This document shows, piece after piece, positions 1-39,866 of a stretch of DNA of 40,464 nucleotides. Both the position numbers and the translations under genes were made by a program. Origin of the DNA: a virus (lineage: Duplodnaviria; Heunggongvirae; Uroviricota; Caudoviricetes); the IMG/VR virus record IMGVR_UViG_643348545_000008, positions 1 to 40,464 of that record, one strand, 5' to 3'. How positions within the stretch are numbered: position 1 is the first letter of the stretch; each line of letters starts with the position of its first letter. The notes under the pieces were generated by a model. That model ran no database searches and was not told the DNA's origin. It saw only the letters and a list, made by a program, of their open reading frames with translations.

Positions 1-1131
1 TCAAATGACCAGTTTTTTCCATTCCTTACCGCGTGCGTCGTTGTAAATATCGGTCATTTTTTGATGCGAATGGCCTAGCAAAATTTTGGTATCAACCCCC
101 TGCTCTCTGAACAATCGCTCTGATAAAGATCTCTGCTCATGGAAAGAGGGAGGGGTGCCATTAGCACGCCAGTTGTAATCCACAGAATCCCGGGCTTTTT
201 TAAATGCAACGGTTAATGTTGCTGGCTTAACCATCCCGCCGCGCTTAGCTGTCCCTTTCGCGTGATGGTGGTGCAATAGCCACGGACTAAGAACGCAATC
301 GCGGCAGGATGACACCACATCATCCAGGGTGAGATTTAATTTATCGCAACGCAGAGCCAGAGGGATGGCAATCCGGGTTCCTGTTTTTTGCTGTTCGACA
401 TGAAGATAACCATCCCGGATATCCGAAAATTGCATTTTGCAAATATCTGAAAGGCGCTGGCCTGTCATCAGTGCCAGCAGCATACCGCGCTGTAAAAAGT
501 AACCATCCTTTTCCGCTGCGTTATAAATCATCATCCACTCATCAAAAGTCAGTCGCTGTCTTGATATCCGCACCTGCGGTTTTTTTGCCGATTCTGCAGG
601 GTTAAAGCCTGGCGGGACATCGCCCGTTTGCTGAGCTTCCCGGAAAACATCGATCAGTACTTTCCTGAAAATTTGTCCCATTCTGTTATGTCCTCTGGCC
701 TTGTACTCTTCCAGTACTGATACCACATCTTTTACGGTTATGGCATCTAACGGTCTGGTGCCAAAACGTTCATCAAATACCCTGAGAGGGGCCGCTTTCT
801 GTTTCAGCGTGTTGAGTTTGATCTCGCCGTTTTCATATCTTTCCTGTTGAATTTTTCTGTAATTATTCAGAAAAATGGTAACGGTTGATGAACCGCCGGT
901 ATCACTAATAATTTTCTCCTGCAGACTGAGCATTTGTTCCATTTGCTGCCGGGCAAGACGGCTGTTCGCTTCTGCTGCAATAGTTTCTGCCAGTTTCTGG
1001 TCAATACTGCCGAGACCGTGATTTTTGCCTGTTATGGGATGCCTGTAACGCCAGTAAACTTTGTTATTTCTTTTGTCAAAATACGGAGATAATCCCGGAA
1101 CATCGGTTTTATATTTTCGCGGGCGCGCCAT
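1..1131 (-). CDS. int: Phage tyrosine integrase (376 aa)
   Basis: Full-length minus-strand ORF ending at the window edge. Carries tyrosine-recombinase motifs (TGQRLSDI box; LLGHSHQKMTDIY near the C-terminus). Sits next to an Xis-like gene. Confidence 0.85.
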   Translation of the reverse strand: MARPRKYKTDVPGLSPYFDKRNNKVYWRYRHPITGKNHGLGSIDQKLAETIAAEANSRLARQQMEQMLSLQEKIISDTGGSSTVTIFLNNYRKIQQERYENGEIKLNTLKQKAAPLRVFDERFGTRPLDAITVKDVVSVLEEYKARGHNRMGQIFRKVLIDVFREAQQTGDVPPGFNPAESAKKPQVRISRQRLTFDEWMMIYNAAEKDGYFLQRGMLLALMTGQRLSDICKMQFSDIRDGYLHVEQQKTGTRIAIPLALRCDKLNLTLDDVVSSCRDCVLSPWLLHHHHAKGTAKRGGMVKPATLTVAFKKARDSVDYNWRANGTPPSFHEQRSLSERLFREQGVDTKILLGHSHQKMTDIYNDARGKEWKKLVI

Positions 1132-1357
1132 CTTCCAGTATCCTCTTCAAAGCAGGGTGATCTGTGGCGATCACCTCCGGCTTGTTTACCATTCCGACAA
1201 AGCGAGCTTGCGGATCCACTCGCCAGCGTCTTCCAACTTTTTTGGGGAGAGGAAATATCATTCCGGCTTTAGCGTATTTACTTAACGTACTCGGAGTTGG
1301 GACCGGTTCACTGAATTCCTCTTTTGCCCACTCAGTGAGCAGAATAAGTCTTGCCAT
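1109..1357 (-). CDS. xis: Excisionase (Xis-like, 82 aa)
   Basis: Small basic protein directly upstream of and overlapping the int start. LTEWAKEE...IFPLPKKVGRRWRV pattern resembles lambda Xis (LQEWNARQ...IFPPPVKDGREY). Confidence 0.6.
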   Translation of the reverse strand: MARLILLTEWAKEEFSEPVPTPSTLSKYAKAGMIFPLPKKVGRRWRVDPQARFVGMVNKPEVIATDHPALKRILEDGAPAKI

Positions 1358-1421
1358 GAGCGTCGTTCGCTAATCATGGTCGCCGCCACTATAGCTGGTG
1401 GGCAACGACCGGGGTTGAACA

Positions 1422-1766
1422 TTAAAAATCAGCCTGATTCGGGATCAGTTTTTGCCAGATAACTGAAACGTATTTTGCCTGGTAACGGGCGTCATCAAGT
1501 GCATTATGGCGCTCACCTTCGAATGGAATAGCCGTTCTGGCATCGAAGTCTATGGCTTTCCCCAGCTCAACGATTGTGCGTACATCGCGATCGTTGTAGT
1601 AACGCCACGGGCAGGGGATCCCCTGCCGTTCGTATGAACGGCGCAAAATCGTGTTGTCGAAGTTGGCTCCATTTCCCCAGACCTGAACAAAAAATTCACC
1701 GGAGTTTTCGTCGATAAATTCCCGCAATTGTAACAGTGCATCATCTAACGGGATTTCATCGGTCAT
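1422..1766 (-). pseudogene. 3'-5' exonuclease (DEDDh/DnaQ-like), N-terminally truncated fragment
   Basis: The 114-aa ORF has Exo II-like (NGANFDNTIL) and Exo III-like (HNALDDARY) motifs but no Exo I (DxE) segment. Its first codon lies 2 bp from the IS1 end, so the 5' part appears to be missing. Confidence 0.55.
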
Positions 1767-1783
1767 AAGGTAATGACTCCAAC

Positions 1784-2287
1784 TTACTGATAGTGTTTTA
1801 TGTTCAGATAATGCCCGATGACCTTGTCATGCAGCTCCACCGATTTTGAGAACGACAGTGACTTCCGTCCCAGCCTTGCCAGATGTTGTCTCAGATTCAG
1901 ATTATGTCGCTCAATGCGCTGAGTGTAACGCTTGCTGATAACGTGCAGCTTTCCCTTCAGGCGTGATTCATACAGCGGCCAGCCATCCGTCATCCATACC
2001 ACGACCTCAAAGGCCGACAGCAGGCTCAGAAGACGCTCCAGTGTGGCCAGAGTGCGTTCACCGGAGACGTGCGCCACAACAGTCCTCCGTATCCTGTCAT
2101 ACGCGTAAAACAGCCAGCGCTGACGTGATTTAGCACCGACGTAGCCCCACTGTTCGTCCATTTCAGCGCAGACAATCACATCACTGCCCGGTTGTATGCG
2201 CGAGGTTACCGACTGCGGCCTGAGTTTTTTAAGTGACGTAAAACCGTGTTGAGGCCAACGCCCATAATGCGTGCACTGGCGCGACAT
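1784..2287 (-). CDS. insB: IS1 InsB transposase frame (167 aa ORF; expressed as InsAB' by frameshift)
   Basis: Protein matches IS1 InsB. It overlaps the insA 3' end as in IS1. Confidence 0.9.
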
Positions 2288-2481
2288 CCGACGCCATTCA
2301 TGGCCATATCAATGATTTTCTGGTGCGTACCGGGCTGAGAGGCGGTGTAAGTGAACTGTAGTTGCCATGTTTTACGGCAATGAGAGCAGAGATAGCGCTG
2401 ATGTCCGGCAGTGCTTTTGCCGTTACGCACCACGCCTTCAGTAGCGGAGCAGGAAGGACATCTGATGGAAATGGAAGCCAC
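2206..2481 (-). CDS. insA: IS1 InsA (91 aa)
   Basis: Protein [43 protein letters not shown] matches IS1 InsA. Confidence 0.9.
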
Positions 2482-2632
2482 GCAAGCACCTTAAAATCAC
2501 CATCATACACTAAATCAGTAAGTTGGCAGCATTACCCGACGCCTGATGAAATACATGACGAAGCAAAAGATATTTTCTTTAACTACTGCAATTACTCATA
2601 TCACGAAATAAAAGACGAAGAGGAAGAGCAAA

Positions 2633-2809
2633 ATGGCTGATTTTGGTTCAACTAAATACAACGTCAGTTTTGAAGCATGGCATGAACTGTTAATGGACTA
2701 TGCAGAGTTACGTGGTGGCAGTGCTGCTGATGCTGAAGCATGGCGTGATGATTATGAAGCAGGAAAAACTCCGGTCGAAGCATATTGTGATGAGTGGGGC
2801 GATGAATGA
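2633..2809 (+). CDS. Hypothetical small acidic protein (58 aa)
   Basis: ATG preceded by a gaggaagag RBS. Its stop overlaps the next start (ATGA coupling). Confidence 0.45.
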   Translation: MADFGSTKYNVSFEAWHELLMDYAELRGGSAADAEAWRDDYEAGKTPVEAYCDEWGDE

Positions 2810-3321
2810 GCGAGATTAATTATCAGGAAGGGCATGAAACGGCAGGGCAGGCAAAACCAGTTGCATGGCGATATCGCTACGTGAAAAAAGACGTTACAGA
2901 CTTTCAGGGGAAGCCGTGGGCTGGTGACTGGAAATATGTACCGACAAAAGAGGATTGTAACGACAGGCCGAACTATGAAATTCAGGCCTTATTCATCGGC
3001 CCGCCAGTCCCGGTGACATCAGAAGGACTGGTTAAAGCCGTGCGCTTTTATGAACAGGTAAAGCGTGAGAATCCGCCAGTCGAAACAGGAGCATGGAAGG
3101 ATGCTGTTGACTGGGTGCTCAGAGAGGCCTGCTGCGCTGCCATTCTGGGTAAAGCCGACAATCCACCAGCATCCGGCAATCAGGTTAGCGAATTAACAAT
3201 GTGGGTTAAACGACTGGTCAGTCAACTGAAAAAAGCTCAGCCGGACTGCAAATTACCGGAGAAGGCGATGGATTACCTGAAACGAAATGGACTGATAAGC
3301 GTGGAGGATGTTTTACGATGA
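2806..3321 (+). CDS. Hypothetical prophage protein (171 aa)
   Basis: Long ORF translationally coupled to the upstream small ORF. No family recognised. Confidence 0.55.
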   Translation: MSEINYQEGHETAGQAKPVAWRYRYVKKDVTDFQGKPWAGDWKYVPTKEDCNDRPNYEIQALFIGPPVPVTSEGLVKAVRFYEQVKRENPPVETGAWKDAVDWVLREACCAAILGKADNPPASGNQVSELTMWVKRLVSQLKKAQPDCKLPEKAMDYLKRNGLISVEDVLR

Positions 3322-3441
3322 ATATTTAGACTAAAGAGTTTGTAACGCTATGTAAGTGATTTTTTCTGGTTTAGATATTTATATGTCCGGCCAAATTGAG
3401 GTGTGTTTAAATGTTATTGCACATTGATTGTAGGGGGAATA

Positions 3442-3621
3442 ATGAAAAACGCATTGCAGTTTTTGTTTGTTGCGTTCTGGTTGTTCGCATCATGTATGCC
3501 CATCATCTTCACAGCAAGGTATATGGAAAAAATTGATGTTTTGATATTAATGTTTGGACATATAAATGCCCTTTTTTTAGGGGTGTTCATGGCGGTCATG
3601 TGCATTGAATACTGGCGGTAA
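3442..3621 (+). CDS. Small hydrophobic membrane protein (59 aa)
   Basis: Internal ATG preceded by an agggggaa RBS. Two predicted hydrophobic helices. AT-rich gene with an AT-rich upstream region. Confidence 0.35.
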   Translation: MKNALQFLFVAFWLFASCMPIIFTARYMEKIDVLILMFGHINALFLGVFMAVMCIEYWR

Positions 3622-3879
3622 ATACAGCGAACGCCATTGGTTTAGTTGGATATTTACTGTGCCGGACAAAAACGGTTTGCGGGGAAATCTTAGTTAAGTA
3701 GAATAACTGCGGGTGCTTGAGGCTATCTGTCTCAGGCATGAACACCAAAAGGCAGATAGAGAAAAGCCCCAGTTAACATTACGCGTCCTGCAAGACGCTT
3801 AACATTAATCTGAGGCCATATCTATGCGACACATAGAGATTAGCCTCTTACGGACCGAAAGGTCAAGGAGAAGCAGGCT

Positions 3880-4035
3880 ATGAAGCAGCAAAAGGCGATG
3901 TTAATCGCCCTGATCGTCATCTGTTTAACCGTCATAGTGACGGCACTGGTAACGAGGAAAGACCTCTGCGAGGTACGAATCCGAACCGGCCAGACGGAGG
4001 TCGCTGTCTTCACAGCTTACGAACCTGAGGAGTAA
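3880..4035 (+). CDS. hok: Hok/Gef-family type I toxin (51 aa)
   Basis: MKQQKAMLIALIVICLTVIVTALVTRKDLCEVRIRTGQTEVAVFTAYEPEE is a clear Hok/Gef family sequence. A short upstream ORF ends at ATGA overlapping the start. A terminator follows. Confidence 0.85.
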   Translation: MKQQKAMLIALIVICLTVIVTALVTRKDLCEVRIRTGQTEVAVFTAYEPEE

Positions 4036-4105
4036 GAGACCCGGCGAGGGATAAATCCCTCGCCACCTCTGATGTGGCAGGCATCCTCAACGCACCCGCA
4101 CTTAA

Positions 4106-4130
4106 CCCGCTTCGGCGGGTTTTTGTTTTT
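4106..4130 (+). terminator. Intrinsic terminator of the hok transcript
   Basis: cccgc-ttcg-gcggg hairpin followed by tttttgttttt. Confidence 0.6.
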
Positions 4131-4251
4131 ATTTTCAACGCGTTTGAAGTTCTGGACGGTGCCGGAATAGAATCAAAAATACTTAAGTAGCGCGCAGGGA
4201 TAAGAGGGATGGTCCCTTAAAGGGGAGAGCTAATTATCCGGAAGGATTCTG

Positions 4252-4503
4252 ATGATGAACATCGAAGAACTGCGTAAAATTTTTTGTGAAGATGGCCTCT
4301 ATGCTGTGTGCGTTGAAAATGGAAACATTGTTAGTCATTACCGCATTCTGTGTTTGCGAAAGAATGGGGCTGCGTTAATTAATTTTGTGGATGCTCGGGT
4401 CACGGACGGATTTATCTTGCGCGAAGGTGAGTTTGTCACTTCATTACAGGCACTGAAAGAGATCGGAATAAAAGCAGGCTTTTCAGCTTTTGCAGAAGAA
4501 TAA
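4252..4503 (+). CDS. Hypothetical protein (83 aa)
   Basis: ORF with a ggaagga RBS. No family recognised. Confidence 0.45.
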   Translation: MMNIEELRKIFCEDGLYAVCVENGNIVSHYRILCLRKNGAALINFVDARVTDGFILREGEFVTSLQALKEIGIKAGFSAFAEE

Positions 4504-4569
4504 ACTCATCTACAATCTTGCGCGGGGCTGAACTCCCGCTGAGTAACACCGTGCCACCGGAGAAAACCG

Positions 4570-4848
4570 ATGGCACGCAACGTAAAATATTACAAACATG
4601 ATAATTCGACCGTTCTTGCCCACACGCACGAGCGGTATTCTCACGCATTCAAGTCTGAATGGTTCCAGCACCCTCCATGCACTGAAGAGCAGGCTGAATG
4701 GATAATTCAGTGTTACCGCAGGCGCGGATACGAGGTTAAGAAAGCCCTTAGTCTCGACTACCGTCACTGGATAATCTCAGTCAGGCTTCCTTACTCCGAA
4801 CGCCCACCGCGTCTGTCCCGCACATTCCAGCAACGCATCTGGAGGTAA
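4570..4848 (+). CDS. Hypothetical protein (92 aa)
   Basis: ORF with a ggagaaa RBS. No family recognised. Confidence 0.45.
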   Translation: MARNVKYYKHDNSTVLAHTHERYSHAFKSEWFQHPPCTEEQAEWIIQCYRRRGYEVKKALSLDYRHWIISVRLPYSERPPRLSRTFQQRIWR

Positions 4849-4849
4849 C

Positions 4850-5899
4850 GTGCGGGTATTACTTCGACCTGTTCTGGTACCGGAACTCGGGCTGGTGATC
4901 GTTAAGCCGGGCCGTGAATCCATGCCGGTATTCCACAATACCCGGGTACTGGTGGAGCCGGAACCGAAAAGCATGCGTAATCTGCCGTCCGGGGTCGTTC
5001 CTGCCGTTCGCCAGCCGCTGGCGGAGGATAAATCATTACTGCCATTTTTCAGCGACGAACGAGTGATTCGTGCTGCTGGTGGCGCTGGCGCATTGTCTGA
5101 CTGGTTACTGCGGCATGTTAAATCCTGCCAGTGGCCACACGGCGATTATCACCACAGTGAAACCGTCATTCACCGTTATGGTACCGGCGCAATGGTGTTG
5201 TGCTGGCACTGCGACAACCAGCTGCGTGACCAGACATCCGAATCACTCGAGCAACTTGCTCATCAAAACCTGTCAGCATGGATGATTGACGTCATCGGTC
5301 ACGCAATAAGCGGTACGCAGGAGCGTGAATTATCTCTGGCTGAATTATCCTGGTGGGCGGTCCGCAATCAGGTGGCGGACGCGCTACCGGAAGCGGTATT
5401 ACGTCGTTCGCTGGGGTTGCGTGCGGAAAAAATCCGCTCAATGTACCGTGAAAGCGACATCGTACCGGGAGAGCAGACCGCCACCAGCATACTGAAACAG
5501 CGCACAAAAAATCTTGCGCCGCTGCCTCACGCCCACCAGCAACAGAACCCACCACAGGAAAAGACGGTGGTCAGCATTGCCGTTGATCCTGAGTCTCCGG
5601 AATCTTTCATGAAACGACCTAAACGTCGCCGCTGGGTTAACGAGAAATACAAACGCTGGGTGAAGACACAGCCGTGTGCGTGTTGTGGTCAGCCAGCCGA
5701 CGATCCCCATCACCTGATTGGTCACGGTCAGGGAGGGATGGGAACAAAGGCCCACGATATTTTCACGCTACCGTTGTGCCGGGAACATCACAACGAACTT
5801 CATGCGGATCCGCTGGCGTTCGAAGAAAAGCATGGTTCTCAGGTTGATTTAATTTTTCGTTTTCTTGATCACGCCTTTGCAACTGGCGTGCTTGGGTAA
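4850..5899 (+). CDS. Nin-region protein, DUF968/YdfU-like, with C-terminal Cys/His HNH-like motif (349 aa)
   Basis: GTG start preceded by a ggaggt RBS. C-terminal CACCGQ...HHLIGHGQGG...CREHHNELH motif. Position immediately upstream of rusA is typical of lambdoid nin regions. The family name is recalled, not searched. Confidence 0.6.
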   Translation: MRVLLRPVLVPELGLVIVKPGRESMPVFHNTRVLVEPEPKSMRNLPSGVVPAVRQPLAEDKSLLPFFSDERVIRAAGGAGALSDWLLRHVKSCQWPHGDYHHSETVIHRYGTGAMVLCWHCDNQLRDQTSESLEQLAHQNLSAWMIDVIGHAISGTQERELSLAELSWWAVRNQVADALPEAVLRRSLGLRAEKIRSMYRESDIVPGEQTATSILKQRTKNLAPLPHAHQQQNPPQEKTVVSIAVDPESPESFMKRPKRRRWVNEKYKRWVKTQPCACCGQPADDPHHLIGHGQGGMGTKAHDIFTLPLCREHHNELHADPLAFEEKHGSQVDLIFRFLDHAFATGVLG

Positions 5900-5911
5900 A
5901 AGAGGTGACTG

Positions 5912-6286
5912 ATGCTCATAGATTTGGTTTTACCTTACCCGCCGACGGTGAACACTTACTGGCGACGCCGTGGCAGCACATATTTTGTATCAAAAGCCGG
6001 GGAGCGTTATCGCCGGGCAGTGGCGCTTATTGTTCGCCAGCAGCGCTTGAAATTAAGCCTGTCCGGACGGTTGGCAATAAAAATTATTGCAGAACCACCG
6101 GATAAGCGCCGCCGTGACCTGGACAATATTCTGAAAGCGCCGCTGGATGCGCTGACGCATGCGGGGTTGCTAATGGACGATGAGCAGTTTGATGAAATCA
6201 ATATCGTTCGTGCTCAGCCAGTATCTGGTGGACGTCTGGGGGTGAAGATTTACCCCATAATGCTTGAAGGGCAGGTCAAAAAATGA
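5912..6286 (+). CDS. rusA: Holliday junction resolvase RusA (124 aa)
   Basis: PYPPTVNTYWRRRG ... RRRDLDNILKAPLDAL ... GGRLGVKI are characteristic RusA motifs. Located just upstream of Q. Confidence 0.85.
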   Translation: MLIDLVLPYPPTVNTYWRRRGSTYFVSKAGERYRRAVALIVRQQRLKLSLSGRLAIKIIAEPPDKRRRDLDNILKAPLDALTHAGLLMDDEQFDEINIVRAQPVSGGRLGVKIYPIMLEGQVKK

Positions 6287-7104
6287 AACTGGAAGATTTA
6301 CCGAAATACTACTCCCCAAAATCCCCCGGCCTGACTGATGCATCGGCCTCAACGTCGAAAGATGCGCTGAGTATCACTGATGTGATGGCCGCGCAGGGCA
6401 TGACACAGAATCGGGCTGAGATGGGGTTTTCTGCGTTCCTGGGGAAAATGGGCATTAGTATGAATGACAGAGAGCGGGCAACAGAATTGCTGACAGAATA
6501 TGCACTCAGTCGGTGCGATCGTGTGGCGGCGTTGAGAAAACTTCCGGCAGAAATAAAACCGGTAGTGATGCGCATTATGGCTTCGTACGCTTTTGAGGAT
6601 TATGCCCGCAGCGCAGCGAGTAAAAAGCAGTGCCCCTGTTGCCGAGGGGAAAAATTTATTGAAGGCGAAGTTTTTACAAACAAGGTTCAGTATCCGGATG
6701 GCAAGCCGCCAGTATGGGCAAAGTGTACGAAAGGTGTGTATCCGTCTTACTGGGAAGAATGGAAAAAAATTCGGGAGGTGGTGAAAGTTTCTTGTCCTGA
6801 ATGTAAAGGGAAGGGGGAGATTTCCACTGCCTGTAAAGACTGCCGTGGGCGTGGTGTCGCCATTCATCGTGAAGAGTCGGTAAAACGTGGTATGCCTGTT
6901 ATCAGAGACTGCCAGCGTTGTGGTGGTCGTGGCTGTGAAAGACTACCATCAACGGAGGCATTTAATGCCATACGCAAAGTGACGAGTGCTATCACGCTTG
7001 ATACGTGGAAAAAATCAGTGAAACGCTTTTACGATACGTTGGTGGTTCGGTTTGACATTGAAGAGGCATGGGCGGAGCGGCAGTTAAAGAGGGTAACGCG
7101 ATAG
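6283..7104 (+). CDS. Late-gene antiterminator Q (Qin/phage-82-type, 273 aa)
   Basis: Overlaps the rusA stop (ATGA). Multiple CxxC zinc-finger pairs and an MKLEDLPKYYSPK N-terminus like QuuQ-type antiterminators. Followed by a promoter-terminator pair. Confidence 0.75.
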   Translation: MKLEDLPKYYSPKSPGLTDASASTSKDALSITDVMAAQGMTQNRAEMGFSAFLGKMGISMNDRERATELLTEYALSRCDRVAALRKLPAEIKPVVMRIMASYAFEDYARSAASKKQCPCCRGEKFIEGEVFTNKVQYPDGKPPVWAKCTKGVYPSYWEEWKKIREVVKVSCPECKGKGEISTACKDCRGRGVAIHREESVKRGMPVIRDCQRCGGRGCERLPSTEAFNAIRKVTSAITLDTWKKSVKRFYDTLVVRFDIEEAWAERQLKRVTR

Positions 7105-7109
7105 TGTTG

Positions 7110-7137
7110 TTGATTTTTCCCGAATCTGTGGTAAATT
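7110..7137 (+). promoter_or_regulatory. Candidate late promoter pR' (-35 TTGATT, 16-nt spacer, extended -10 TGgTAAATT)
   Basis: Sigma70-like hexamers directly after the Q stop, where pR'/qut is expected. Confidence 0.45.
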
Positions 7138-7186
7138 TGCCCTAACGATGGGCGTTTTATGCCTGACGTTAGAAGATTTTTTACAC

Positions 7187-7209
7187 CCCGCCGCCTGGCG
7201 GGTTTTTTA
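7187..7209 (+). terminator. Candidate tR' terminator
   Basis: cccgcc-gcct-ggcggg hairpin plus tttttt, about 50 nt downstream of the candidate pR'. Confidence 0.5.
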
Positions 7210-7330
7210 TGACTGAAATCGCGTCAGTACAGTAAACGCGCTGGTGGCGGTGAATACCTGTCTTTCAGCTTGCTGGCTTTTTCGACAAGAGTTATTGGTG
7301 TGTCACGTTAACCGGAAAAGGGAAAAAGAC

Positions 7331-7528
7331 ATGCTGAAACAGCAGGATATGACCGAAACCGCCAGAGTGGTGTTTAATGAATTAAGTGCCACCGAACCGG
7401 CGACAGTCGGGGAGATTGCGCAGAATACTTACCTTTCACGTGAACGCTGCCAGTTAATACTGACCCAGCTTGTTATGGCGGGACTGGCAGACTATCAGTT
7501 CGGTTGTTACAGACGCCTTCAGTCCTGA
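7331..7528 (+). CDS. Small putative winged-helix DNA-binding protein (65 aa)
   Basis: ATG with an aaaaggga RBS. ATVGEIAQNTYLSRERCQLILTQLVMAGLADY resembles a helix-turn-helix. Followed by a terminator. Confidence 0.4.
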   Translation: MLKQQDMTETARVVFNELSATEPATVGEIAQNTYLSRERCQLILTQLVMAGLADYQFGCYRRLQS

Positions 7529-7539
7529 AGGCTTTTTTA
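7515..7539 (+). terminator. Intrinsic terminator
   Basis: gccttcag-tcc-tgaaggc hairpin followed by tttttt. Confidence 0.55.
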
Positions 7540-7678
7540 TTTGTGGTAAATGGGCGGCTGGTGGGTGTTAGGGGCACTCACCAGCCATCTGCTCATGCGT
7601 CCGGATCACAAGCAAACCTCAGGCCCACTGCTTTGCGCAAAAGCAGAATGAGCCTATCAGAGACAGGCTTAATGATCC

Positions 7679-8737
7679 ATGCTTAATACTGTAAAAATAT
7701 CCAGTTGTGAGTTAATCAACGCCGACTGCCTGGAATTTATCCGGTCGTTACCCGAAAATTCTGTTGACCTGATAGTCACGGACCCGCCGTACTTTAAAGT
7801 GAAGCCTGAGGGCTGGGATAACCAGTGGAAGGGCGACGATGATTACCTGAAATGGCTGGACCAGTGTCTGGCGCAGTTCTGGCGGGTGCTGAAACCTGCC
7901 GGAAGTCTTTACCTGTTCTGTGGCCATCGCCTGGCGTCTGACATTGAAATCATGATGCGTGAACGCTTCAATGTGCTGAACCATATTATCTGGGCGAAGC
8001 CGTCCGGACGCTGGAACGGGTGCAACAAGGAAAGCCTGAGGGCATATTTCCCCGCCACAGAGCGCATTCTGTTCGCGGAACATTATCAGGGGCCGTATCG
8101 CCCGAAAGATGCCGGGTATGAGGCGAAGGGCAGGGCACTGAAACAGCATGTGATGGCCCCGCTGATTTCTTACTTTCGTGATGCGCGTGCTGCCCTGGGG
8201 ATAACGGCAAAACAGATTGCTGATGCCACAGGAAAGAAAAACATGGTGTCGCACTGGTTCAGTGCCAGCCAGTGGCAGCTACCGGACGAAAGCGATTATC
8301 TGAAATTACAGGCGCTGTTTGCCCGGGTGGCAGAAGAGAAGCATCAGCGCGGAGAACTGGAAAAGCCACATCACCAACTGGTCAGCACATACAGTGAACT
8401 GAACCGGTAGTATACGGAACTGCAGAGTGAATATAAGCATCTGCGGCGGTATTTTGGTGTGACGGTGCAGGTGCCGTACACCGATGTGTGGACGCATAAA
8501 CCGGTGCAGTACTATCCCGGGAAACATCCGTGCGAAAAACCGGCAGAAATGCTGCAGCAGATAATCAGCGCGAGCAGTCGTCCGGGTGACCTGGTTGCAG
8601 ATTTCTTCATGGGGTCAGGTTCGACAGTCAAAGCAGCGATAGCGCTGGGACGTCGTGCAACTGGCGTTGAGCTGGAGACTGAGCGTTTTGAGCAGACGGT
8701 CAGGGAAGTTCAGAATTTAGTCAGTCAGAACGGATGA
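7679..8737 (+). pseudogene. DNA methyltransferase (N6-adenine/N4-cytosine type) interrupted by one in-frame amber codon at 8408..8410
   Basis: ORFs 7679..8410 (DPPY motif) and 8459..8737 (FFMGSGST SAM-binding motif) are in the same frame. Only one TAG separates them and the 16 codons in between are open. Confidence 0.6.
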
Positions 8738-8777: not shown

Positions 8778-8853
8778 GGCCCTTTAGCTCAGTGGTGAGA
8801 GCGAGCGACTCATAATCGCCAGGTCGCTGGTTCAAATCCAGCAAGGGCCACCA
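8778..8853 (+). tRNA. tRNA with CAT anticodon, closest to E. coli tRNA-Ile2 (ileX/ileY-like; formally Met/Ile)
   Basis: 76-nt cloverleaf with GGCCCTT/AAGGGCC acceptor stem, anticodon loop CTCATAA, TTCAAAT T-loop and encoded CCA. Confidence 0.8.
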
Positions 8854-8862
8854 TATCACATA

Positions 8863-8939
8863 CCGCCATTAGCTCATCGGGATAGAGCGCCAGCCTTCGA
8901 AGCTGGCTGCGCGGGGTTCGAGTCCTCGATGGCGGTCCA
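8863..8939 (+). tRNA. tRNA-Arg (anticodon TCG)
   Basis: 77-nt cloverleaf with CCGCCAT/ATGGCGG acceptor stem, anticodon loop CTTCGAA, TTCGAGT T-loop and encoded CCA. The discriminator base is unusual. Confidence 0.7.
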
Positions 8940-9646: not shown

Positions 9647-10171
9647 CAGGGGGAGAAGATTTTCTCCTGTCCTGATGATTTTGGGGCGCTGGAAAGATAT
9701 TGTGCTGTGAAGTGTTAAATTCCTCACAATTCAGTAAGTTGACAGTTGCCTGTCAGACTGAGCATTTGTTAAAAAAATTTCGCATGGTGAATCCCCCTGT
9801 GCGGAGGGGCGACTGGTGAACGGTATGATCTCTTTGATGATCGTAAGCGAGAATATGCGGGTTTAGTGTCACCGGGCTGAACTCACCGGGAGGCACCCGG
9901 CACCATGCAATGGCACATAGCGCCACTCTCCAGCCCCTCTCCGGAGGGGCTTTCTTGTGGGCAAAAAAAAAGCCCGAGTGGGTTCGGGCAACAGCATGAG
10001 ATATACATTTTTATAATCGAATGGATTTTAACCAGAATTCATAAGGCTGCGCAACTGCGCGGCCTTTTTCGTATTGCGGGCTGTAGTCTTCCTCCTGCCA
10101 TTGTCCTGTAACTTCCGGACTTCAGCCCGCCCCTCATCTGACTCACAACATTATCCCGACCGGGAGGATTC

Positions 10172-14664: not shown

Positions 14665-14858
14665 GCAGAATATTTTGCTAATAAATGACGTTGGCCAAGG
14701 CGGACGGATAACACGAAATCCTGCGAACTGGCAAAATGTAAGTGAATAAAAGTAAAAACCCCGTTTGTTGGCAGCAAGCGGGGTTTTGTTTTTATGGCAG
14801 TAAGCTATGGGAGGCTGCCTTGATTGATTTTAGCAAACTGATTAGGGAGTTGCGACTC

Positions 14859-14954
14859 ATGATTAGTCAATTACCAAACTGGAAATTTTTGCTGGTCTGG
14901 AGCATCCCTTTTTTATGGGTAGTATCCCAGTTAATTGTGGCAATTAAGGGGTAG
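14859..14954 (+). CDS. Small hydrophobic peptide (31 aa)
   Basis: gggag RBS 8 nt upstream. Single predicted transmembrane helix. First of four tandem small ORFs. Confidence 0.35.
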   Translation: MISQLPNWKFLLVWSIPFLWVVSQLIVAIKG

Positions 14955-14956
14955 CT

Positions 14957-15088
14957 ATGTCAGACAAACTCATAACGCCGGCAAAGGTCCTGTGTGTGAT
15001 TGTCGGTATTTCATTTTCACTAATGCTGGTTGCTCTTTTTCTGTCCCTCGCCTGGGTGATGTTGTCTTCGTCGGGGCTGCTGGGGTGA
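14957..15088 (+). CDS. Small hydrophobic peptide (43 aa)
   Basis: ATG 2 nt after the previous stop. aagggg RBS. Single transmembrane helix. Confidence 0.35.
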   Translation: MSDKLITPAKVLCVIVGISFSLMLVALFLSLAWVMLSSSGLLG

Positions 15089-15207
15089 CAGTGACTGATG
15101 ACATCAGCAGAGCGCTGGCTTTTGCTATTAAGTGGGTGGCTGTTGGTATTGCTGTGTCTCCGATGCTGTATGGGCTGGCAAAACTGGTCATTGCGCTGAA
15201 ATCGTGA
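15085..15207 (+). CDS. Small hydrophobic peptide (about 40 aa, GTG start)
   Basis: GTGA overlap with the previous stop. Sequence ALAFAIKWVAVGIAV is paralogous to the next peptide. Confidence 0.3.
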   Translation: MTVTDDISRALAFAIKWVAVGIAVSPMLYGLAKLVIALKS

Positions 15208-15218
15208 ACTTTAAAAAG

Positions 15219-15305
15219 ATGAGTGCTGAACTTATTCGGGCAATGGCATTTGCCATTCGTATTGTGGCCATTGCTGTTCTGGTCTGGGCAATTCGTTGGT
15301 GGTGA
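15219..15305 (+). CDS. Small hydrophobic peptide (28 aa)
   Basis: AMAFAIRIVAIAVLVW is paralogous to the preceding peptide. Its stop lies 1 nt before the Rz start. Confidence 0.3.
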   Translation: MSAELIRAMAFAIRIVAIAVLVWAIRWW

Positions 15306-15306
15306 T

Positions 15307-15801
15307 ATGAACCGTGTTCTGTGTGTGGTGATTATTGTCATGCTGGTAGCCTGTGGTGCGCTTAGTCTGGGGCTGAATCATTACCGTGATAACGCCATCA
15401 CCTACAAAGAGCAGCGCGATAAAAAAGTCAGTGAGCTGGAGCAGGCAAATGCAACCATTACTGATATGCAGCAGCGCCAGCGTGATGTTGCTGCACTTGA
15501 TGCCAGATACTCGAGGGAATTAGCCGATGCGAGAGCTGAAAATGAAACTCTGCGCGCTGACGTTGCCGCTGGTCGTAAGCGCCTGCGGGTCAACGCCACC
15601 TGCCCCGGTACCGTGCGTGAAGCCACCGGCACCTCCGGCGTGGATAATGCAACCGGCCCCCGACTGGCAGACACCGCTGAACGGGATTATTTCATCCTCA
15701 GAGAACGGTTGATGACAATGCAGAAGCAGCTGGAAGGGGCGCAGGACTATATCCGCACTCAGTGCACTAAGCTGGCTTTTTATTATCCGGAGGATACATG
15801 A
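15307..15801 (+). CDS. i-spanin Rz (164 aa)
   Basis: N-terminal transmembrane helix then a coiled-coil periplasmic domain. Contains an embedded +1-frame lipoprotein gene. Confidence 0.8.
   Translation: MNRVLCVVIIVMLVACGALSLGLNHYRDNAITYKEQRDKKVSELEQANATITDMQQRQRDVAALDARYSRELADARAENETLRADVAAGRKRLRVNATCPGTVREATGTSGVDNATGPRLADTAERDYFILRERLMTMQKQLEGAQDYIRTQCTKLAFYYPEDT
15542..15712 (+). CDS. o-spanin Rz1, embedded in Rz in the +1 frame (56 aa)
   Basis: MKLCALTLPLVVSACGS signal peptide and lipobox, followed by proline-rich sequence. Entirely inside Rz. Confidence 0.7.
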   Translation: MKLCALTLPLVVSACGSTPPAPVPCVKPPAPPAWIMQPAPDWQTPLNGIISSSENG

Positions 15802-16022
15802 AGAAATTACGGGTAACCGTAGAACCTTTTCAGGGAACAATTCCGTTCCGTATTTTGCAGCGTGGTCGTGTTCTTGTTGAAGGTTCGTTCAGTGGTAAAT
15901 GTACGCAATTACACTCCCGGACCTTTCAGGTGAATGCCACGAATGAAGAGCTAACCGTGGAGTGTACGATGAATGCCGCTAAATGCCGCATGGTATCCGC
16001 TGCATTACAGCCAGTGTGTTGA
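15798..16022 (+). CDS. Hypothetical protein (74 aa), translationally coupled to Rz
   Basis: ATGA overlap with the Rz stop. No family recognised. Confidence 0.35.
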   Translation: MKKLRVTVEPFQGTIPFRILQRGRVLVEGSFSGKCTQLHSRTFQVNATNEELTVECTMNAAKCRMVSAALQPVC

Positions 16023-16360
16023 GCGACCTTATTATCCATGCGCGGTATTGTCGCCGTATTCCTGCATTAACAGAGACCGCAGCCCGACAGGGAGACTCCT
16101 CTGCGAGAGTGTGCGGGGATAATCAAAAACGATACACACCGGGGTTTACCGCGTTAACGGAGCGCGGCGTTGTCCCCTCATGGTCGCTGGTCCGGTGCGA
16201 TGGTGGAAGAAACCGGACGATGTGTTACCTCGCAAGCTCTGTTATGTCATGTGTCTGATTTGTGATTTAAGTCGGATAATTGTCGTTGCCATTAAACAGA
16301 GGATTGATGACCGACAGGGTGGCATTGTTAGAATAAGACTTATTCTTATCTGTGCCGGGA

Positions 16361-16693
16361 ATGAAAATGAAAAGAAATCTTCCGTTAATTATTTTGTTGT
16401 CTTCTCTGGTTATGGGCTGTACGCAACATAAAACAGATATGCCCCGACAGTTGGTTAAGGCATTACCACAATATCCGGCCTATGCAGCGGCAAATTATAT
16501 AAAGGGACGGGTTGATGTGAAGTTTGATATTGGTGCTGATGGTACTGTCACCCGAATTGAGTTTATCCGTTCAGAGCCGCACCATTTGTTTGATGAGCAG
16601 GTTGTAAAGGCGATGGCAAAATGGCGATTTGAGAAGGACAGGCCGTGTAAAGGCGTGAAGAAAACGTTTATCTTTAGTCCTTCTGCACCCTGA
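16361..16693 (+). CDS. Lipoprotein with TonB C-terminal-like domain (about 110 aa)
   Basis: Signal peptide with lipobox-like LVMGC. PQYPAYAAANYIKGRVDVKFDIGADGTV...FDEQVVKAMAKWRFE aligns with the TonB C-terminal domain ([28 protein letters not shown]...FEREVKNAMRRWRYE). Confidence 0.7.
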   Translation: MKMKRNLPLIILLSSLVMGCTQHKTDMPRQLVKALPQYPAYAAANYIKGRVDVKFDIGADGTVTRIEFIRSEPHHLFDEQVVKAMAKWRFEKDRPCKGVKKTFIFSPSAP

Positions 16694-31507: not shown

Positions 31508-32671
31508 ATGAAAAAAATGACAGTGGCACTTTCAGCTGTGGCAGCAGCTGTAATTTTTGCAGCGGGGGCGCAGGCTGCAGAAGTATACAATAAAGATGGC
31601 AATAAACTTGATGTGTATGGGCGTGCAACTGCACTCCATTATTTCTCCAGTGATAAGGGGGATGATGGAGATAAGACATACGCACGTCTGGGCTTTAAAG
31701 GTGAAACTCAGATTAATGACCAGTTGACTGGTTTTGGTCAGTGGGAATATCAGTTCTCTGGTAATAAAGCTGAATCAGAGGGTGCTGCGGGTAATAAAAC
31801 CCGTCTTGCATTTGCAGGTCTGAAGTTTGGTGAGTTTGGCACCATTGATTATGGTCGTAACTATGGTATTGCGTACGATGTTGGTTCTTATACTGACGTA
31901 TTACCAGAGTTTGGCGGTGATGGCTGGACCCAGACCGATAACTTCATGACAGCCCGTACTTCCGGGGTATTAACCTATCGTAATACAGATTTCTTTGGGC
32001 TTGTCGATGGCCTGAATTTTGCGGCACAGTACCAGGGTAAAAATGATCGGGGTGATCTCCGGAAAGCTAATGGTGATGGTCACGGTTTCTCAGCCAGTTA
32101 TGAATATGAAGGTTTTGGTATCGTTGCCGCATATATTAATGCGGACCGAACCAATAATCAGGAAAAAGGTCTGAATGGTACTCTGACGATTGAACAAACT
32201 GATCCTTTAACCGGTAAAGTGACTGAAAAGCAGATCGTTGTTGATTCCGGTAGTGTTGCAAAAGGTAAACACGCTGAGATGTGGGGAGTCGGACTAAAAT
32301 ACGATGCTGACAACCTTTACCTGGCTACAACATATTCCGAAACTCAGAATCTGACGACCTTTGGTGATAAAGGAGTTGCAGATAAAGCGCAAAACTTTGA
32401 AGCGGTACTGCAGTATCAGTTTGATTTCGGTCTGCGTCCATCTCTGGCATTCCTGCAGTCTCGTGCTCAGGATGTCATTGTAGGTGGTAAAAACTATGGT
32501 GACCAGGATTTGGTTAAGTATGTTGACGTAGGTGCGAAATATTACTTCAATAAAAATATGTCCACCTATGTTGATTATAAAATCAATCTGGTTGATGAGA
32601 ATAAGTTTACCAGGGATGCGGGCATTGCAACGGATGATATCGTTGCTGTTGGTATGACTTATCAGTTCTGA
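31508..32671 (+). CDS. Outer-membrane general porin, OmpC/NmpC/Lc family (387 aa)
   Basis: Signal peptide ending [19 protein letters not shown]-terminus. Conserved PEFGGD and [13 protein letters not shown] motifs. C-terminal ...YQF. Confidence 0.85.
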
Positions 32672-34897: not shown

Positions 34898-35073
34898 AAC
34901 ATAAAAAAATCCCGCAGTGATCGCGGAGCTGCGGGGACAGACAAATGAAGATTAGTGTTAAGGAGTTGTTTTTTTATGTCACGGCAAAAAAACACTAACG
35001 CAGCGAAATTATACGCGCCACAGTCAGTGTGTGAAAATGTGAAGATATTCAGAATTTTTATTCAGTCATGATA

Positions 35074-35106
35074 CAGGCATCCTCCGGGGTGCCTGTTGTT
35101 TTTTGG
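35074..35106 (+). terminator. Hairpin plus T-tract, candidate terminator just upstream of J
   Basis: caggca-(10 nt)-tgcctg followed by ttgttttttgg. Confidence 0.4.
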
Positions 35107-35147
35107 GCATAAACAGATTCAGACATCAGACAGGAGAGGGGGACAGA

Positions 35148-37539
35148 GTGGGTAAAGGTGGCGGCAAGGCACACACGCCTCGTGAGGCGAAGGATAATCT
35201 CAAATCCACGCAGATGATGAGCGTGATTGATGCCATTGGTGAGGGACCGATAGAAGGTCCGGTGAAGGGACTGCAGAGTATCCTGGTGAACAAAACCCCG
35301 CTGACGGACACGGACGGTAATCCCGTGATACACGGTGTGACCGCCGTCTGGCGTGCCGGGGAGCAGGAGCAGACACCACCGGAAGGCTTTGAGTCCTCCG
35401 GAGCTGAAACTGTACTGGGTGTGGAAGTGACGAAGGCAAAACCGGTGACACGCACCATTACGTCAGCGAACATTGACCGCCTGCGGGTGACCTTCGGGGT
35501 GCAGTCACTGGTGGAGACCACGTCAAAGGGTGACCGTAATCCGACGTCTGTCCGCCTGCTGATTCAGCTTGAGCGTGGTGGTAAATGGATGACGGAAAAG
35601 GATGTCACCATTAACGGCAAGACCACCTCGCAGTTCCTGGCGTCGGTGATTCTGGATAATCTGCCGCCCCGGCCCTTTAACATCCGGATGGTCAGGGAGA
35701 CGGCGGACAGCACCACGGACCAGCTGCAGAATAAGACGCTCTGGTCGTCATACACCGAAATCATCGATGTGAAACAGTGCTACCCGAACACGGTCATTGT
35801 GGGGCTGCAGGTGGATGCGGAGCAGTTCGGCGGCCAGCAGATGACGGTGAACTACCATATCCGTGGTCGCATCATCCAGGTGCCGTCAAACTATGACCCG
35901 GAAAAACGCACGTACAGCGGTATCTGGGACGGCAGTCTGAAACCGGCATACAGCAACAACCCGGCCTGGTGTCTGTGGGACATGCTGACTCACCCGCGCT
36001 ACGGCATGGGAAAACGCCTGGGGGCGGCGGATGTGGACAAGTGGGCGCTGTATGCCATCGGGCAGTACTGCGACCAGACGGTCCCGGATGGTTTCGGGGG
36101 CACAGAGCCGCGGATGACCTTTAATGCGTACCTGGCACAACAGCGTAAGGCATGGGACGTGCTCAGTGATTTCTGCTCGGCGGTTCCGGATTAACGCACC
36201 GGCAGCGCCTGCCGGTGTTGAACTGACGCCGGGGTATTTTCAGATAACGGCAGTCCCGCGTCTTGCGGTGTATGACCCGACGGTGCAGTTTGAGTTCTGG
36301 TTTTCGGAGGCAAAAATTGCAGACGCCGCACAGGTGGAAACCTCTGTCCGTTATCTGGGGACCGGCAGTCAGTGGAGTGTCTCCGGTCCGCACATTAAGC
36401 CCGGAAAGGATTTCTGGTTTTATGTGCGCAGCGTCAACCTGGTGGGTAAATCTGCTTTTGTGGAAGCCAGTGGACGGGCGAGCAATGATGCTGCGGGCTA
36501 TCTGGAACTTTTCCGGGAAAAGATAGGAAAACTGCATCTGGCAGAGGCGCTGTGGGCAGAGATTGACAACAGTCAGCTGAAGGACGAGATGGCGGAAATG
36601 CAGACCACCATCACCGAAACCCGCAATGAAATCACACAGACGGTCAGTAAAACGCTGGAGGACCAGAGCGCCACCATACAGCAGATACAGCGCGTGCAGA
36701 AGGACACAAATGATGACCTTGCTGCACTTTACATGCTGAAGGTACAGAAAACAAAAAATGGCATACCCTATGTTGCCGGTATTGGAGCGGGGATTGAGGA
36801 TACTGATGGCCAGCCCCTGAGCAACATACTGCTGCTGGCTGACCGTATTGCGATGATTAACCCGGAGGACGGCAACACCACGCCGTTATTTGTGGCGCAG
36901 GGGAATCAGTTGTTCATGAACGATGTGTTCCTGAAGCGACTGTTTGCGGTGAGTATCACCTCGTCCGGCAATCCCCCGACGTTTTCCCTGACGCCGGAGG
37001 GCAGGCTGACCGCAAGAAATGCTGATATCAGCGGTAACGTGAATGCGAATTCCGGGACGCTCAACAACGTCACGATTAACGAGAACTGTCGGGTTCTGGG
37101 AAAACTGTCCGCGAACCAGATTGAAGGCGATCTCGTTAAAACAGTGGGCAAAGCTTTCCCCCGGGATTCCCGTGCACCGGAGCGGTGGCCATCAGGGACC
37201 ATTACCGTCAGGGTTTATGACGATCAGCCGTTTGACCGGCAGATTGTTATTCCGGCGGTGGCATTCAGTGGCGCTAAGCATAAGAGAGAGCATACTGATA
37301 TTTACTCCTCATGCCGTCTGATAGTGCGGAAAAACGGTGCTGAAATTTATAACCGTACCGCGCTGGATAATACGCTGATTTACAGTGGCGTTATTGATAT
37401 GCCTGCCGGTCACGGTCACATGACACTGGAGTTTTCGGTGTCAGCATGGCTGGTAAATAACTGGTATCCCACAGCAAGTATCAGCGATTTGCTGGTTGTG
37501 GTGATGAAGAAAGCCACTGCAGGCATCACGATTAGCTGA
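35148..37539 (+). pseudogene. J: Central tail fibre / host-specificity protein J with internal out-of-frame deletion (N-terminal part 35148..36194, C-terminal part about 36190..37539)
   Basis: First ORF matches the lambda J N-terminus (KAHTPREAKDNLKSTQ ... [10 protein letters not shown]) then stops. A second ORF in another frame matches the J C-terminal third ([19 protein letters not shown] ... [10 protein letters not shown] ...). About 400 central residues are absent. Confidence 0.7.
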
Positions 37540-37558
37540 ATTTTATAACCCAGATACG

Positions 37559-37583
37559 GGCGCCAGAAATGGCGCCTTTTTTA
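37559..37583 (+). terminator. Intrinsic terminator after J
   Basis: ggcgcc-agaaat-ggcgcc hairpin plus tttttt. Confidence 0.6.
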
Positions 37584-37606
37584 TTGCAGAAAAGCGAGAG
37601 GTAATT

Positions 37607-38206
37607 ATGCGTAAAGTTTGTGCAGCCATTTTGTCCGCAGCCATCTGTCTGTCCGTATCCGGTGCGCCTGCATGGGCGTCTGAGCAGCAGGCCACGCTGA
37701 GTGCGGGGTATCTTCATGCCCTGACGAACACTACCGGTAGTGATGATCTGAACGGGATTAACGTGAAATACCGTTATGAATTTACGGACACGCTGGGGCT
37801 GATTACGTCATTCAGTTATGCCAATGCTGAAGGTGAGCAAAAAACGCACTACAACGATACCCGCTGGCATGAGGATTCTGTGCGTAACCGCTGGTTCAGC
37901 GTGATGGCGGGGCCATCTGTGCGCGTGAATGAATGGTTCAGCGCTTATGCGCTGGCCGGAGTGTCGTATGCCCGGGTGTCGTCTTTTGCCGGTGATTATG
38001 TGACCCTCACGTCAGATGAGGGTAAAAAGCAGGAGCACCTGACCCGTTCGGACAGCGGACGCCGCAGCCATACCGCACTGACATACAGTGCAGGCGTGCA
38101 GATTAACCCGACAGAAAATATCGTGGTCGACCTGGCTTATGAAGCCTCAGGACGTGGTGACTGGCGTACGGAGGCGTTTATTGTCGGCACCGGATACCGG
38201 TTCTGA
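37607..38206 (+). CDS. lom: Outer membrane protein Lom (Ail/PagC family, 199 aa)
   Basis: Signal peptide. Beta-barrel signature ending GTGYRF. Position immediately after J as in lambda. Confidence 0.85.
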   Translation: MRKVCAAILSAAICLSVSGAPAWASEQQATLSAGYLHALTNTTGSDDLNGINVKYRYEFTDTLGLITSFSYANAEGEQKTHYNDTRWHEDSVRNRWFSVMAGPSVRVNEWFSAYALAGVSYARVSSFAGDYVTLTSDEGKKQEHLTRSDSGRRSHTALTYSAGVQINPTENIVVDLAYEASGRGDWRTEAFIVGTGYRF

Positions 38207-38312
38207 GAGTATATGACGATTTATCTTCTGCAAACATTGTTATAATTCGCAGGTTCATCCGCCTCATGTGATGAACTGCGTTTGAGGAAACGTAAAGTTA
38301 CACTGTCCTGAA

Positions 38313-38345
38313 GCCCGTGGCGTCACTGCTGCGGGCTTTTTTTTA
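38313..38345 (+). terminator. Intrinsic terminator after lom
   Basis: gcccg-(14 nt)-cgggc hairpin followed by ttttttttt. Confidence 0.5.
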
Positions 38346-38357
38346 TGGGAGAAATCT

Positions 38358-39866
38358 ATGACAGTCAGAATATCGGGCGTGCTGAAGGACGGCACCGGGA
38401 AGCCGGTGCCGGGATGCACCATAGAGCTGAAAGCGCGACGCACCACAGAGACAGTGATAGTCACCACGGTGGCGCAGGGGCAGCCGGGGGAAACCGGCAG
38501 TTACAGTTTTGATGTGGAGCCGGGGTGGTACCGGGTGACGCTGAACACGGAAGGGTACGCCCCGTCGTATGTGGGTGACATTCTGGTGAAGGCGGATTCT
38601 GAGCCGGGAACGCTGAATAAATTTCTGATGGAACAGGATGAGGCGCAGTATTACCCGAAAGCGCTTGCAGAGCTGGAAGCGGTGGCAGCGGAAATCCTGA
38701 AGCGTGCTGAAGCGTCGGCGGCGAGTGCAGAGGAAGCGAAGAAACGGGCAGAGAATGCCCGGGGACCGGCGGGCGAGAAGGGAGACACAGGTCCACAGGG
38801 TGCCACAGGGGCACAGGGACCAGCCGGGGCAACGGGGGCGGTCGGACCAAAAGGTGAGCCGGGGCCAAAGGGAGAACGGGGAGAAACAGGTCCACAGGGA
38901 CCGAAGGGCGATAAAGGTGACCCGGGCGGACCGCCGGGGCCGAAAGGTGACACCGGCCCACGTGGAGAGGCCGGACCACCCGGACCACAGGGTCCGGCAG
39001 GGCAAACCGGCCCGAAAGGGGATAAAGGTGAACCCGGCGCAACAGGTCCGGCAGGTCCCGCAGGCCCTCGGGGAGAAACCGGCCCCGCAGGTCCTGCGGG
39101 TCCCGCAGGCAGTGTCGCCAGTGTTCCGGATGCCAGCACATCACAGAAAGGTGTTGTACAGCTGAGCAGCGATACCAACAGCGATGATGAAACAAAAGCG
39201 GCAACCCCAAAGGCTGTGAAAGCGGTAATGGCAGAAGTGCAGGCGGCAAAAACGAAGGCAGAAGAGGCAGCAACCCGGGCAGCAGTCCCCGGACCGAAGG
39301 GGGACAGGGGGGAACCTGGCGCACCTGGTGCAGTGGGGCCCGCAGGCCCACGGGGACCGGCTGGTGCAGCTGGTCCCAAAGGTGATGCAGGCCCGGCAGG
39401 GCCACGAGGTGAAAGGGGACCTGCGGGGGCACAGGGTGTTCCGGGGCCGGTTGGTCCGGCAGGTCCTGCGGGTAAAACGGGGCCACGAGGTTTGCAGGGA
39501 GAAACAGGAAGACAGGGCCCGACAGGTCCACAGGGCCCGACAGGTGAACCCGGACCACAGGGACCACAAGGGCCAACCGGAAGGCTGGTACCCGGGGAAA
39601 TTTACAGCATCGGAACATACATTATTGCCGCACTAGCCCCGTATACAACCGACATCGGCAGAACCTATCAGCCAGGAGAAACTGTACAGGGTTCACGCCT
39701 TAAGCGATGCGCCATAATCAAAGATGCAAGCGGGAACTATATGAAAGCTAACACCGATGGCATTGACGGCAACCTATCCTCAGTTCCGGGCTCATGGATG
39801 GTGTGTAATGAAATTACGTCGACAAATGACAATGAAGGCATCGGGCTGTTCCAGCGCGCATACTGA
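38358..39866 (+). CDS. stf: Side tail fibre protein with collagen-like G-X-Y repeats (Stf-like, 502 aa)
   Basis: N-terminus [28 protein letters not shown] matches lambda Stf. Two long Gly-X-Y tracts. The [28 protein letters not shown] motif is shared with Stf. Confidence 0.75.

Follow-up and report, generated by a model that had tools for sequence, protein, structure and literature searches.

Gene content of the prophage and organization of the J locus

The DNA analyzed here, a stretch of 40,464 nucleotides referred to as the window, carries a lambdoid prophage that is inserted beside ompW and bordered at its other end by the trp operon. It is 100% identical to the Escherichia coli ED1a sequence CU928162.2 over the 11.3 kb that were compared. 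The tail operon has the order M-L-K-I-J-lom-stf, and J occupies the same position as the gene of lambda gpJ (P03749), which follows L, K, and I and precedes lom. Comparison with the DETEC-S792 prophage found Q and the lysis, terminase, capsid, portal, connector, tail tube, and G/T genes at full length, and the same was true in the tail region of the tape measure, M, L, K, I, lom, and tail fibre genes. J is present as two fragments in different reading frames. These fragments, the junction between them, and an IS1 element are listed below.

1769..2536, minus strand: IS1, 768 bp, with InsA/InsB ORFs and terminal inverted repeats, and no 9-bp target duplication
35148..36194, plus strand: 5' fragment of the tail-tip gene J; GTG start, codons 1-345, then VPD and TAA; 348 aa; domain FNIII-A_GpJ
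36182..36183, plus strand: J deletion junction; nt 1036-2117 of the 3,474-nt gene missing; 0 bp microhomology
36184..37539, plus strand: 3' fragment of J in the +1 frame; codons 707-1157 and the stop codon; domains Ig_J_second (FNIII-2), Phage_Tail_Tip, and Ig_GpJ_C

The original prediction had assigned the ORF at 35148..36194 to the N-terminal part of J. This ORF exists as described, with a strong Shine–Dalgarno sequence before its GTG start, and encodes J residues 1-345. The two fragments had been described as the N- and C-terminal thirds of the protein, but the actual remainders are ~30% of J at the N terminus and ~39% at the C terminus. The second frame was said to start near 36190; J-homologous reading begins at 36184, and the frame is open back to ATG 36124 or GTG 36166.

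Size, endpoints, and junction of the deletion

Blastn alignment with the intact J allele of strain SW071611 revealed that 1,082 bp are absent from the middle of J in the window. The window positions 35149-36182 correspond to 3001-4034 of the SW071611 sequence (98.5% identity), and 36183-39001 correspond to 5117-7935 (98.9% identity), so that the missing block is 4035-5116. The lost codons are 346-705 together with 2 nt of codon 706 (360 codons and 2 nt, about 361 codons). Because 1,082 leaves a remainder of 2 when divided by 3, J lies in the +1 frame downstream of the junction, and its reading frame is disrupted relative to the intact orthologues at the same locus. A deletion with loss of frame had been proposed from the sequence alone; alignment to the intact allele upheld both points, but corrected the size from ~400 to ~361 codons. 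In megablast searches of phage records and of 5,426 complete E. coli genomes, the 2.5-kb interval of the window likewise matches intact J in two separate pieces, which span ~3.58 kb in those records.

The endpoints were defined using two intact alleles. Their flanks are GCG/ATG and CAC/GTT (the slash marks the endpoint), and the window has GCG/GTT, which makes the junction unambiguous with an endpoint overlap of 0 bp. Slipped mispairing between repeats was considered as the deletion mechanism and is unsupported, since the endpoint microhomology is 0 in both alleles. Here, we propose that one illegitimate, homology-free event removed the 1,082 bp, probably by blunt-end illegitimate recombination. 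In the resulting gene, codon 345 is followed directly by the third base of codon 706, and translation from the J start reads three out-of-frame codons before reaching a stop, yielding a predicted 348-aa stub. We conclude with high confidence that J of the ompW-site lambdoid prophage in E. coli ED1a is a pseudogene that arose by this single deletion.

Domains lost from the tail-tip protein

In the intact allele, Pfam identifies FNIII-A_GpJ (residues 86-207), Phage-tail_3 (331-492), and Ig_J (609-712), followed by Ig_J_second (714-816), Phage_Tail_Tip (871-998), and Ig_GpJ_C (1027-1157). The intact relative and lambda J are collinear; their alignment covers residues 1-833 and 863-1156 (E = 0), and the six-domain Pfam architecture is common to both. 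Against the lambda J chain in the Protein Data Bank (8IYK_J), homology extends across the hub, the C-terminal fibre, and the receptor-binding domain, and the E value of 0 means that a chance match is not an issue. Phage-tail_3 and Ig_J are within the deleted block. The N-terminal fragment contains only FNIII-A, and the C-terminal fragment contains Ig_J_second, Phage_Tail_Tip (the central fibre), and Ig_GpJ_C (the receptor-binding domain); no single polypeptide of the window locus carries the six-domain gpJ set. Compared with lambda gpJ, J of the window lacks residues 346-706, and the rest is distributed over two frames. The receptor-binding domain has diverged from that of lambda, with a score of 191 bits for lambda J compared with 260 bits for the OmpC-binding A8 gpJ chimera. 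It is thus related to the LamB-binding domain of lambda and, more closely, to the OmpC-binding domain of A8 gpJ, but is identical to neither.

Structures of lambda gpJ have been solved (PDB IDs: 8IYK, 8K35, 8XCG, 8XCI, and 9E7M), and the deletion corresponds to about residues 346-708 of the lambda protein. HDIV forms the core of the lambda hub domains, and the ring of HDIV and gpL HDI links the gpM hexamer to HDIII-HDII (PMC11101478). A β-sandwich of residues 483-569 is inserted in HDIV, and a linker lies between HDIV and FNIII-1/FNIII-2, the latter two domains closing the cone (PMC10721106). By correspondence with lambda gpJ, the predicted lost segment is the HDIV hub core with its inserted β-sandwich, the linker, and FNIII-1. 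Restoration of the frame would still not yield a J trimer that docks under the gpM ring and closes the tail tip. A trimeric tail tip and binding to a porin receptor should be impossible without HDIV, and we infer loss of J function from the homology to the lambda gpJ structures. The prediction that no full-length tail-tip protein can be made therefore holds, because the deletion is out of frame and the hub domains of the tail tip are gone.

Coding potential of the remaining J fragments

The 3' fragment comprises 451 J codons without a stop and is ~99% identical to the intact alleles. In public annotation, it appears as a 457-aa ORF starting at GTG 36166. The predicted pairing energies with the anti-Shine–Dalgarno sequence are -3.3 kcal/mol for ATG 36124 and -5.8 kcal/mol for GTG 36166, compared with -11.1 kcal/mol for the true J start. 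GTG 36166 has a GGGA motif 8 nt upstream, and its pairing is comparable to that of some real genes of the window. The 3' fragment has no convincing ribosome-binding site; the restart signals appear weak to moderate, and a putative 457-aa product may be translated from them. Codon changes specific to the window lineage are few, with one nonsynonymous and seven synonymous changes in the N-terminal fragment and two of each kind in the C-terminal fragment, so that neither decay nor constraint since the deletion is demonstrable.

The original prediction also held that the C-terminal receptor-binding part remains available for recombination. This is plausible as judged from the sequence, because the fragment is uninterrupted and ~99% identical to intact alleles, and because marker rescue between lambdoid phages and prophages is published: in experiments, temperate lambdoid phages gained DNA of defective prophages (PMC3945230). 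The defective prophages of O157 likewise interact and recombine (PMC2669165).

Distribution of the junction and alternative explanations

Searches of public assemblies bear on whether the true J is intact and the 1.08-kb gap or frameshift was introduced by sequencing or misassembly. The junction gave no single-piece match among the 5,426 complete RefSeq E. coli genomes (megablast with a 201-bp probe), a collection that evidently does not include ED1a itself, and an exact-pattern scan of the GTDB representative genomes returned 0 matches. This absence could be taken to favor an artefact, and it indicates that the J allele is rare. However, an identical 60-nt junction string was found at seven loci in five of nine assemblies, and the four further assemblies have the same pair of 457-aa and 348-aa ORFs. 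The exact 348-aa product was found in seven contigs and the junction-specific 457-aa product in 15-16 contigs; the two ORFs lie side by side in at least nine distinct public assemblies, whose contigs range in size between 4 kb and 5.2 Mb and include both draft contigs of 4-6 kb and Mb-scale chromosomes. The carriers are 99.5-100% identical over the region and differ elsewhere in the prophage, namely in an RVT_1/GIIM gene, in Eib-like and SPATE cargo, and in the number of collagen repeats. The same junction in nine assemblies that differ elsewhere excludes an error of reads or assembly for practical purposes, and we give an intact J in this lineage a vanishing probability. A genuine division of labor is just as improbable, in which two adjacent polypeptides, or a product of programmed frameshifting, together replace J. 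In its favor, there is a 29-nt overlap of the two ORFs, which is common for coupled genes, and both ORFs are listed as proteins in public annotations. Nevertheless, 361 codons with Phage-tail_3 and Ig_J are missing from both ORFs combined, and the product of a +1 shift would still lack HDIV and FNIII-1. In split tail genes with programmed frameshifting, such as lambda G/GT, the full content is spread over two frames, which is not the case here, and J is one gene in the annotated phage and prophage relatives listed. Among the complete E. coli genomes, 3,181 have a locus that matches at least 80% of the J query; the best 30 of these all match in two pieces over ~3.58 kb, and each is annotated as one J gene or tail-tip protein. 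Two close relatives examined in detail, DETEC-S792 (WP_271290539.1) and SW071611 (WP_447310350.1), have intact J at the ompW site as one 3,474-nt CDS. Their J genes are single ORFs of 1,157 aa, unlike that of the window, with the same flanking genes on both sides, and the parts retained in the window are 97-99% identical to them. The two alternatives that would have undone the original prediction, a sequencing error and a natural two-gene arrangement, thus both fail, the latter because the relatives have a single J of 1,157 aa, which the two ORFs combined do not reach.

A different question is whether the truncated J is kept because it benefits the host, as a poison of tail tips, a recombination reservoir, or a receptor blocker. 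In one version, the N-terminal HDII-insertion and FNIII-A surfaces of the stub, which contact gpI, would poison the tail tips of super-infecting lambdoid phages; in another, selection would keep the receptor-binding frame open as a reservoir or receptor blocker. The absence of stops from the 451-codon fragment, the persistence of the allele in several strains, and the uptake of DNA from defective prophages by temperate phages (PMC3945230) are in favor of such a benefit. On the other hand, expression is unsupported and the restart signals are weak, the near identity of the carriers means that persistence may reflect recent common descent, and the lineage-specific changes are too few for selection to be detected. 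We regard a host-beneficial function as improbable. Slightly less probable still is the more specific idea that the 348-aa stub, made when a super-infecting lambdoid phage provides a compatible Q, acts as a dominant-negative inhibitor of tail-tip assembly or that the receptor-binding fragment, its frame intact, serves as a recombination cassette for receptor switching by incoming phages. Under the preferred reading, a pseudogene left by one deletion, the cryptic prophage would simply have been passed down vertically within a small group of strains.

A second lesion beside IS1

IS1 is flanked by CGGTCATAA and CGACGCCTG. Homology to the DETEC-S792 prophage ends exactly at 1768/1769, as does homology to an ompW-site prophage of a second type. 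An IS1 at this homology breakpoint, without a target duplication, is the arrangement characteristic of an IS1-associated deletion or rearrangement. A gene-by-gene comparison with the DETEC-S792 prophage, which keeps racR, cro-like, ydaT, O/P-like, and exonuclease genes, found no match in the window for its racR, cro-like, ydaT, O-like, and P-like genes and no counterpart for the exonuclease and most early-left genes. The repressor, cro, and the replication region, absent from the interval 1-4640, would have been lost in the IS1-associated rearrangement. A 114-aa ORF at 1422-1766 was considered as an exonuclease gene truncated by IS1, but it is a stand-alone Rv2179c-like gene found in many ompW-site prophages.

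Because repressor and replication functions were lost beside IS1, the J deletion is not the only lethal lesion. The prophage is cryptic for at least two independent reasons, with the loss on the IS1 side as the second; J is not the sole cause of the defect and is possibly not the first lesion. The predicted inability to form infectious particles is supported by the gene content and even appears over-determined, given the missing repressor, cro-like, and replication genes.

Other features of the prophage

The 250-bp spacer between I and J (34898-35147) contains a promoter-like sequence on the minus strand (TTCACA, 16 nt, TATAAT; 35035 to 35008; 11/12 matches) and, ~80 nt past it, a minus-strand terminator hairpin with a run of seven T (34927 to 34901). 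The arrangement looks like a candidate gene for a small RNA of ~100 nt antisense to the tail operon, and the candidate matched no Rfam family. The spacer block is 72-96% conserved in 147 phage records (Stx1/Stx2 phages, BP-4795, and PPompW), with conserved -35 and -10 boxes and terminator stem and a variable loop. A plus-strand terminator-like hairpin at 35073-35096 lies directly 5' of J.

Between the tail genes M and L, a 387-aa OmpC-like porin (Pfam Porin_1) is encoded at 31508-32671; its homologue in a relative is annotated as "porin OmpC." The gene is present in the ED1a-type and SW071611 prophages and absent from the DETEC-S792 prophage. It presumably resembles the Lc porin of phage PA-2 and may have a role in lysogenic conversion or superinfection exclusion by analogy.

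The portal region (22158-24742) consists of a 454-aa ORF and a 407-aa ORF with tandem repeats of ~54 aa, which overlap at ATGA. DETEC-S792 has a run of six G in place of the five in the window, and its portal ORFs are fused to 915 aa. The split portal was rejected as a second structural lesion, since two adjacent "portal" genes are given in most of the Stx phage records listed with annotation of this stretch; two separate genes thus appear to be the usual state.

The side tail-fibre gene (38358-39866) encodes 502 aa with long collagen-like Gly-X-Y repeats, whose number varies between strains (402, 480, and 502 aa). One paper is reportedly devoted to collagen-like proteins from prophages of E. 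coli O157:H7 (PMC3368898). Downstream of the tail-fibre genes, ED1a leads straight into yciE/trpA, unlike two assemblies with the J deletion (L011, L012, and L014, ~14,800-21,100), in which YadA-anchor (Eib-like) and Peptidase_S6 autotransporter (SPATE) cargo is found 3' of these genes. In GCA_900449405.1 (L011), positions 805-4104 contain a group II intron-type reverse-transcriptase gene (RVT_1, GIIM) among fragments of the tape-measure gene.

Rfam matches in 3711-4035, 8778-8936, and 9753-10019 are sok, which adjoins a hokD-type toxin ORF (3880-4035), two tRNAs, and the sRNAs STnc100 and AsxR ("anti-stx2 sRNA"). These lie between Q/methylase and a nanS-like esterase, the interval in which Stx phages carry stx; comparison of the window with the relative showed no stx-like gene.

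Comparison with other lambdoid prophages and implications

Lesions of this kind have precedents. The lambdoid prophages among Sp1-Sp18 of O157 Sakai carry scattered inactivating lesions, including ones in host-specificity genes, as in the window (Asadulghani et al. 2009, PMC2669165). In O145 strains, J is annotated as "frameshifted" and is ~490 bp shorter than intact J. The endpoints of the J deletion in the window differ from those of the O145 and Sakai lesions, and the event is independent of them. The ED1a sequence, with both J fragments annotated, has been public since deposition of the genome. What is described here is known in kind: a cryptic lambdoid prophage whose host-specificity gene has undergone ordinary decay.

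As a documented case of such decay, the locus matters mainly for correct annotation. Lacking both the repressor and replication genes and a functional tail tip, the ompW-site prophage of the commensal strain ED1a is not countable as an inducible phage and should be scored as cryptic. Its intact 3' part of J, lom, and tail-fibre genes are possible sequence donors for related temperate phages.
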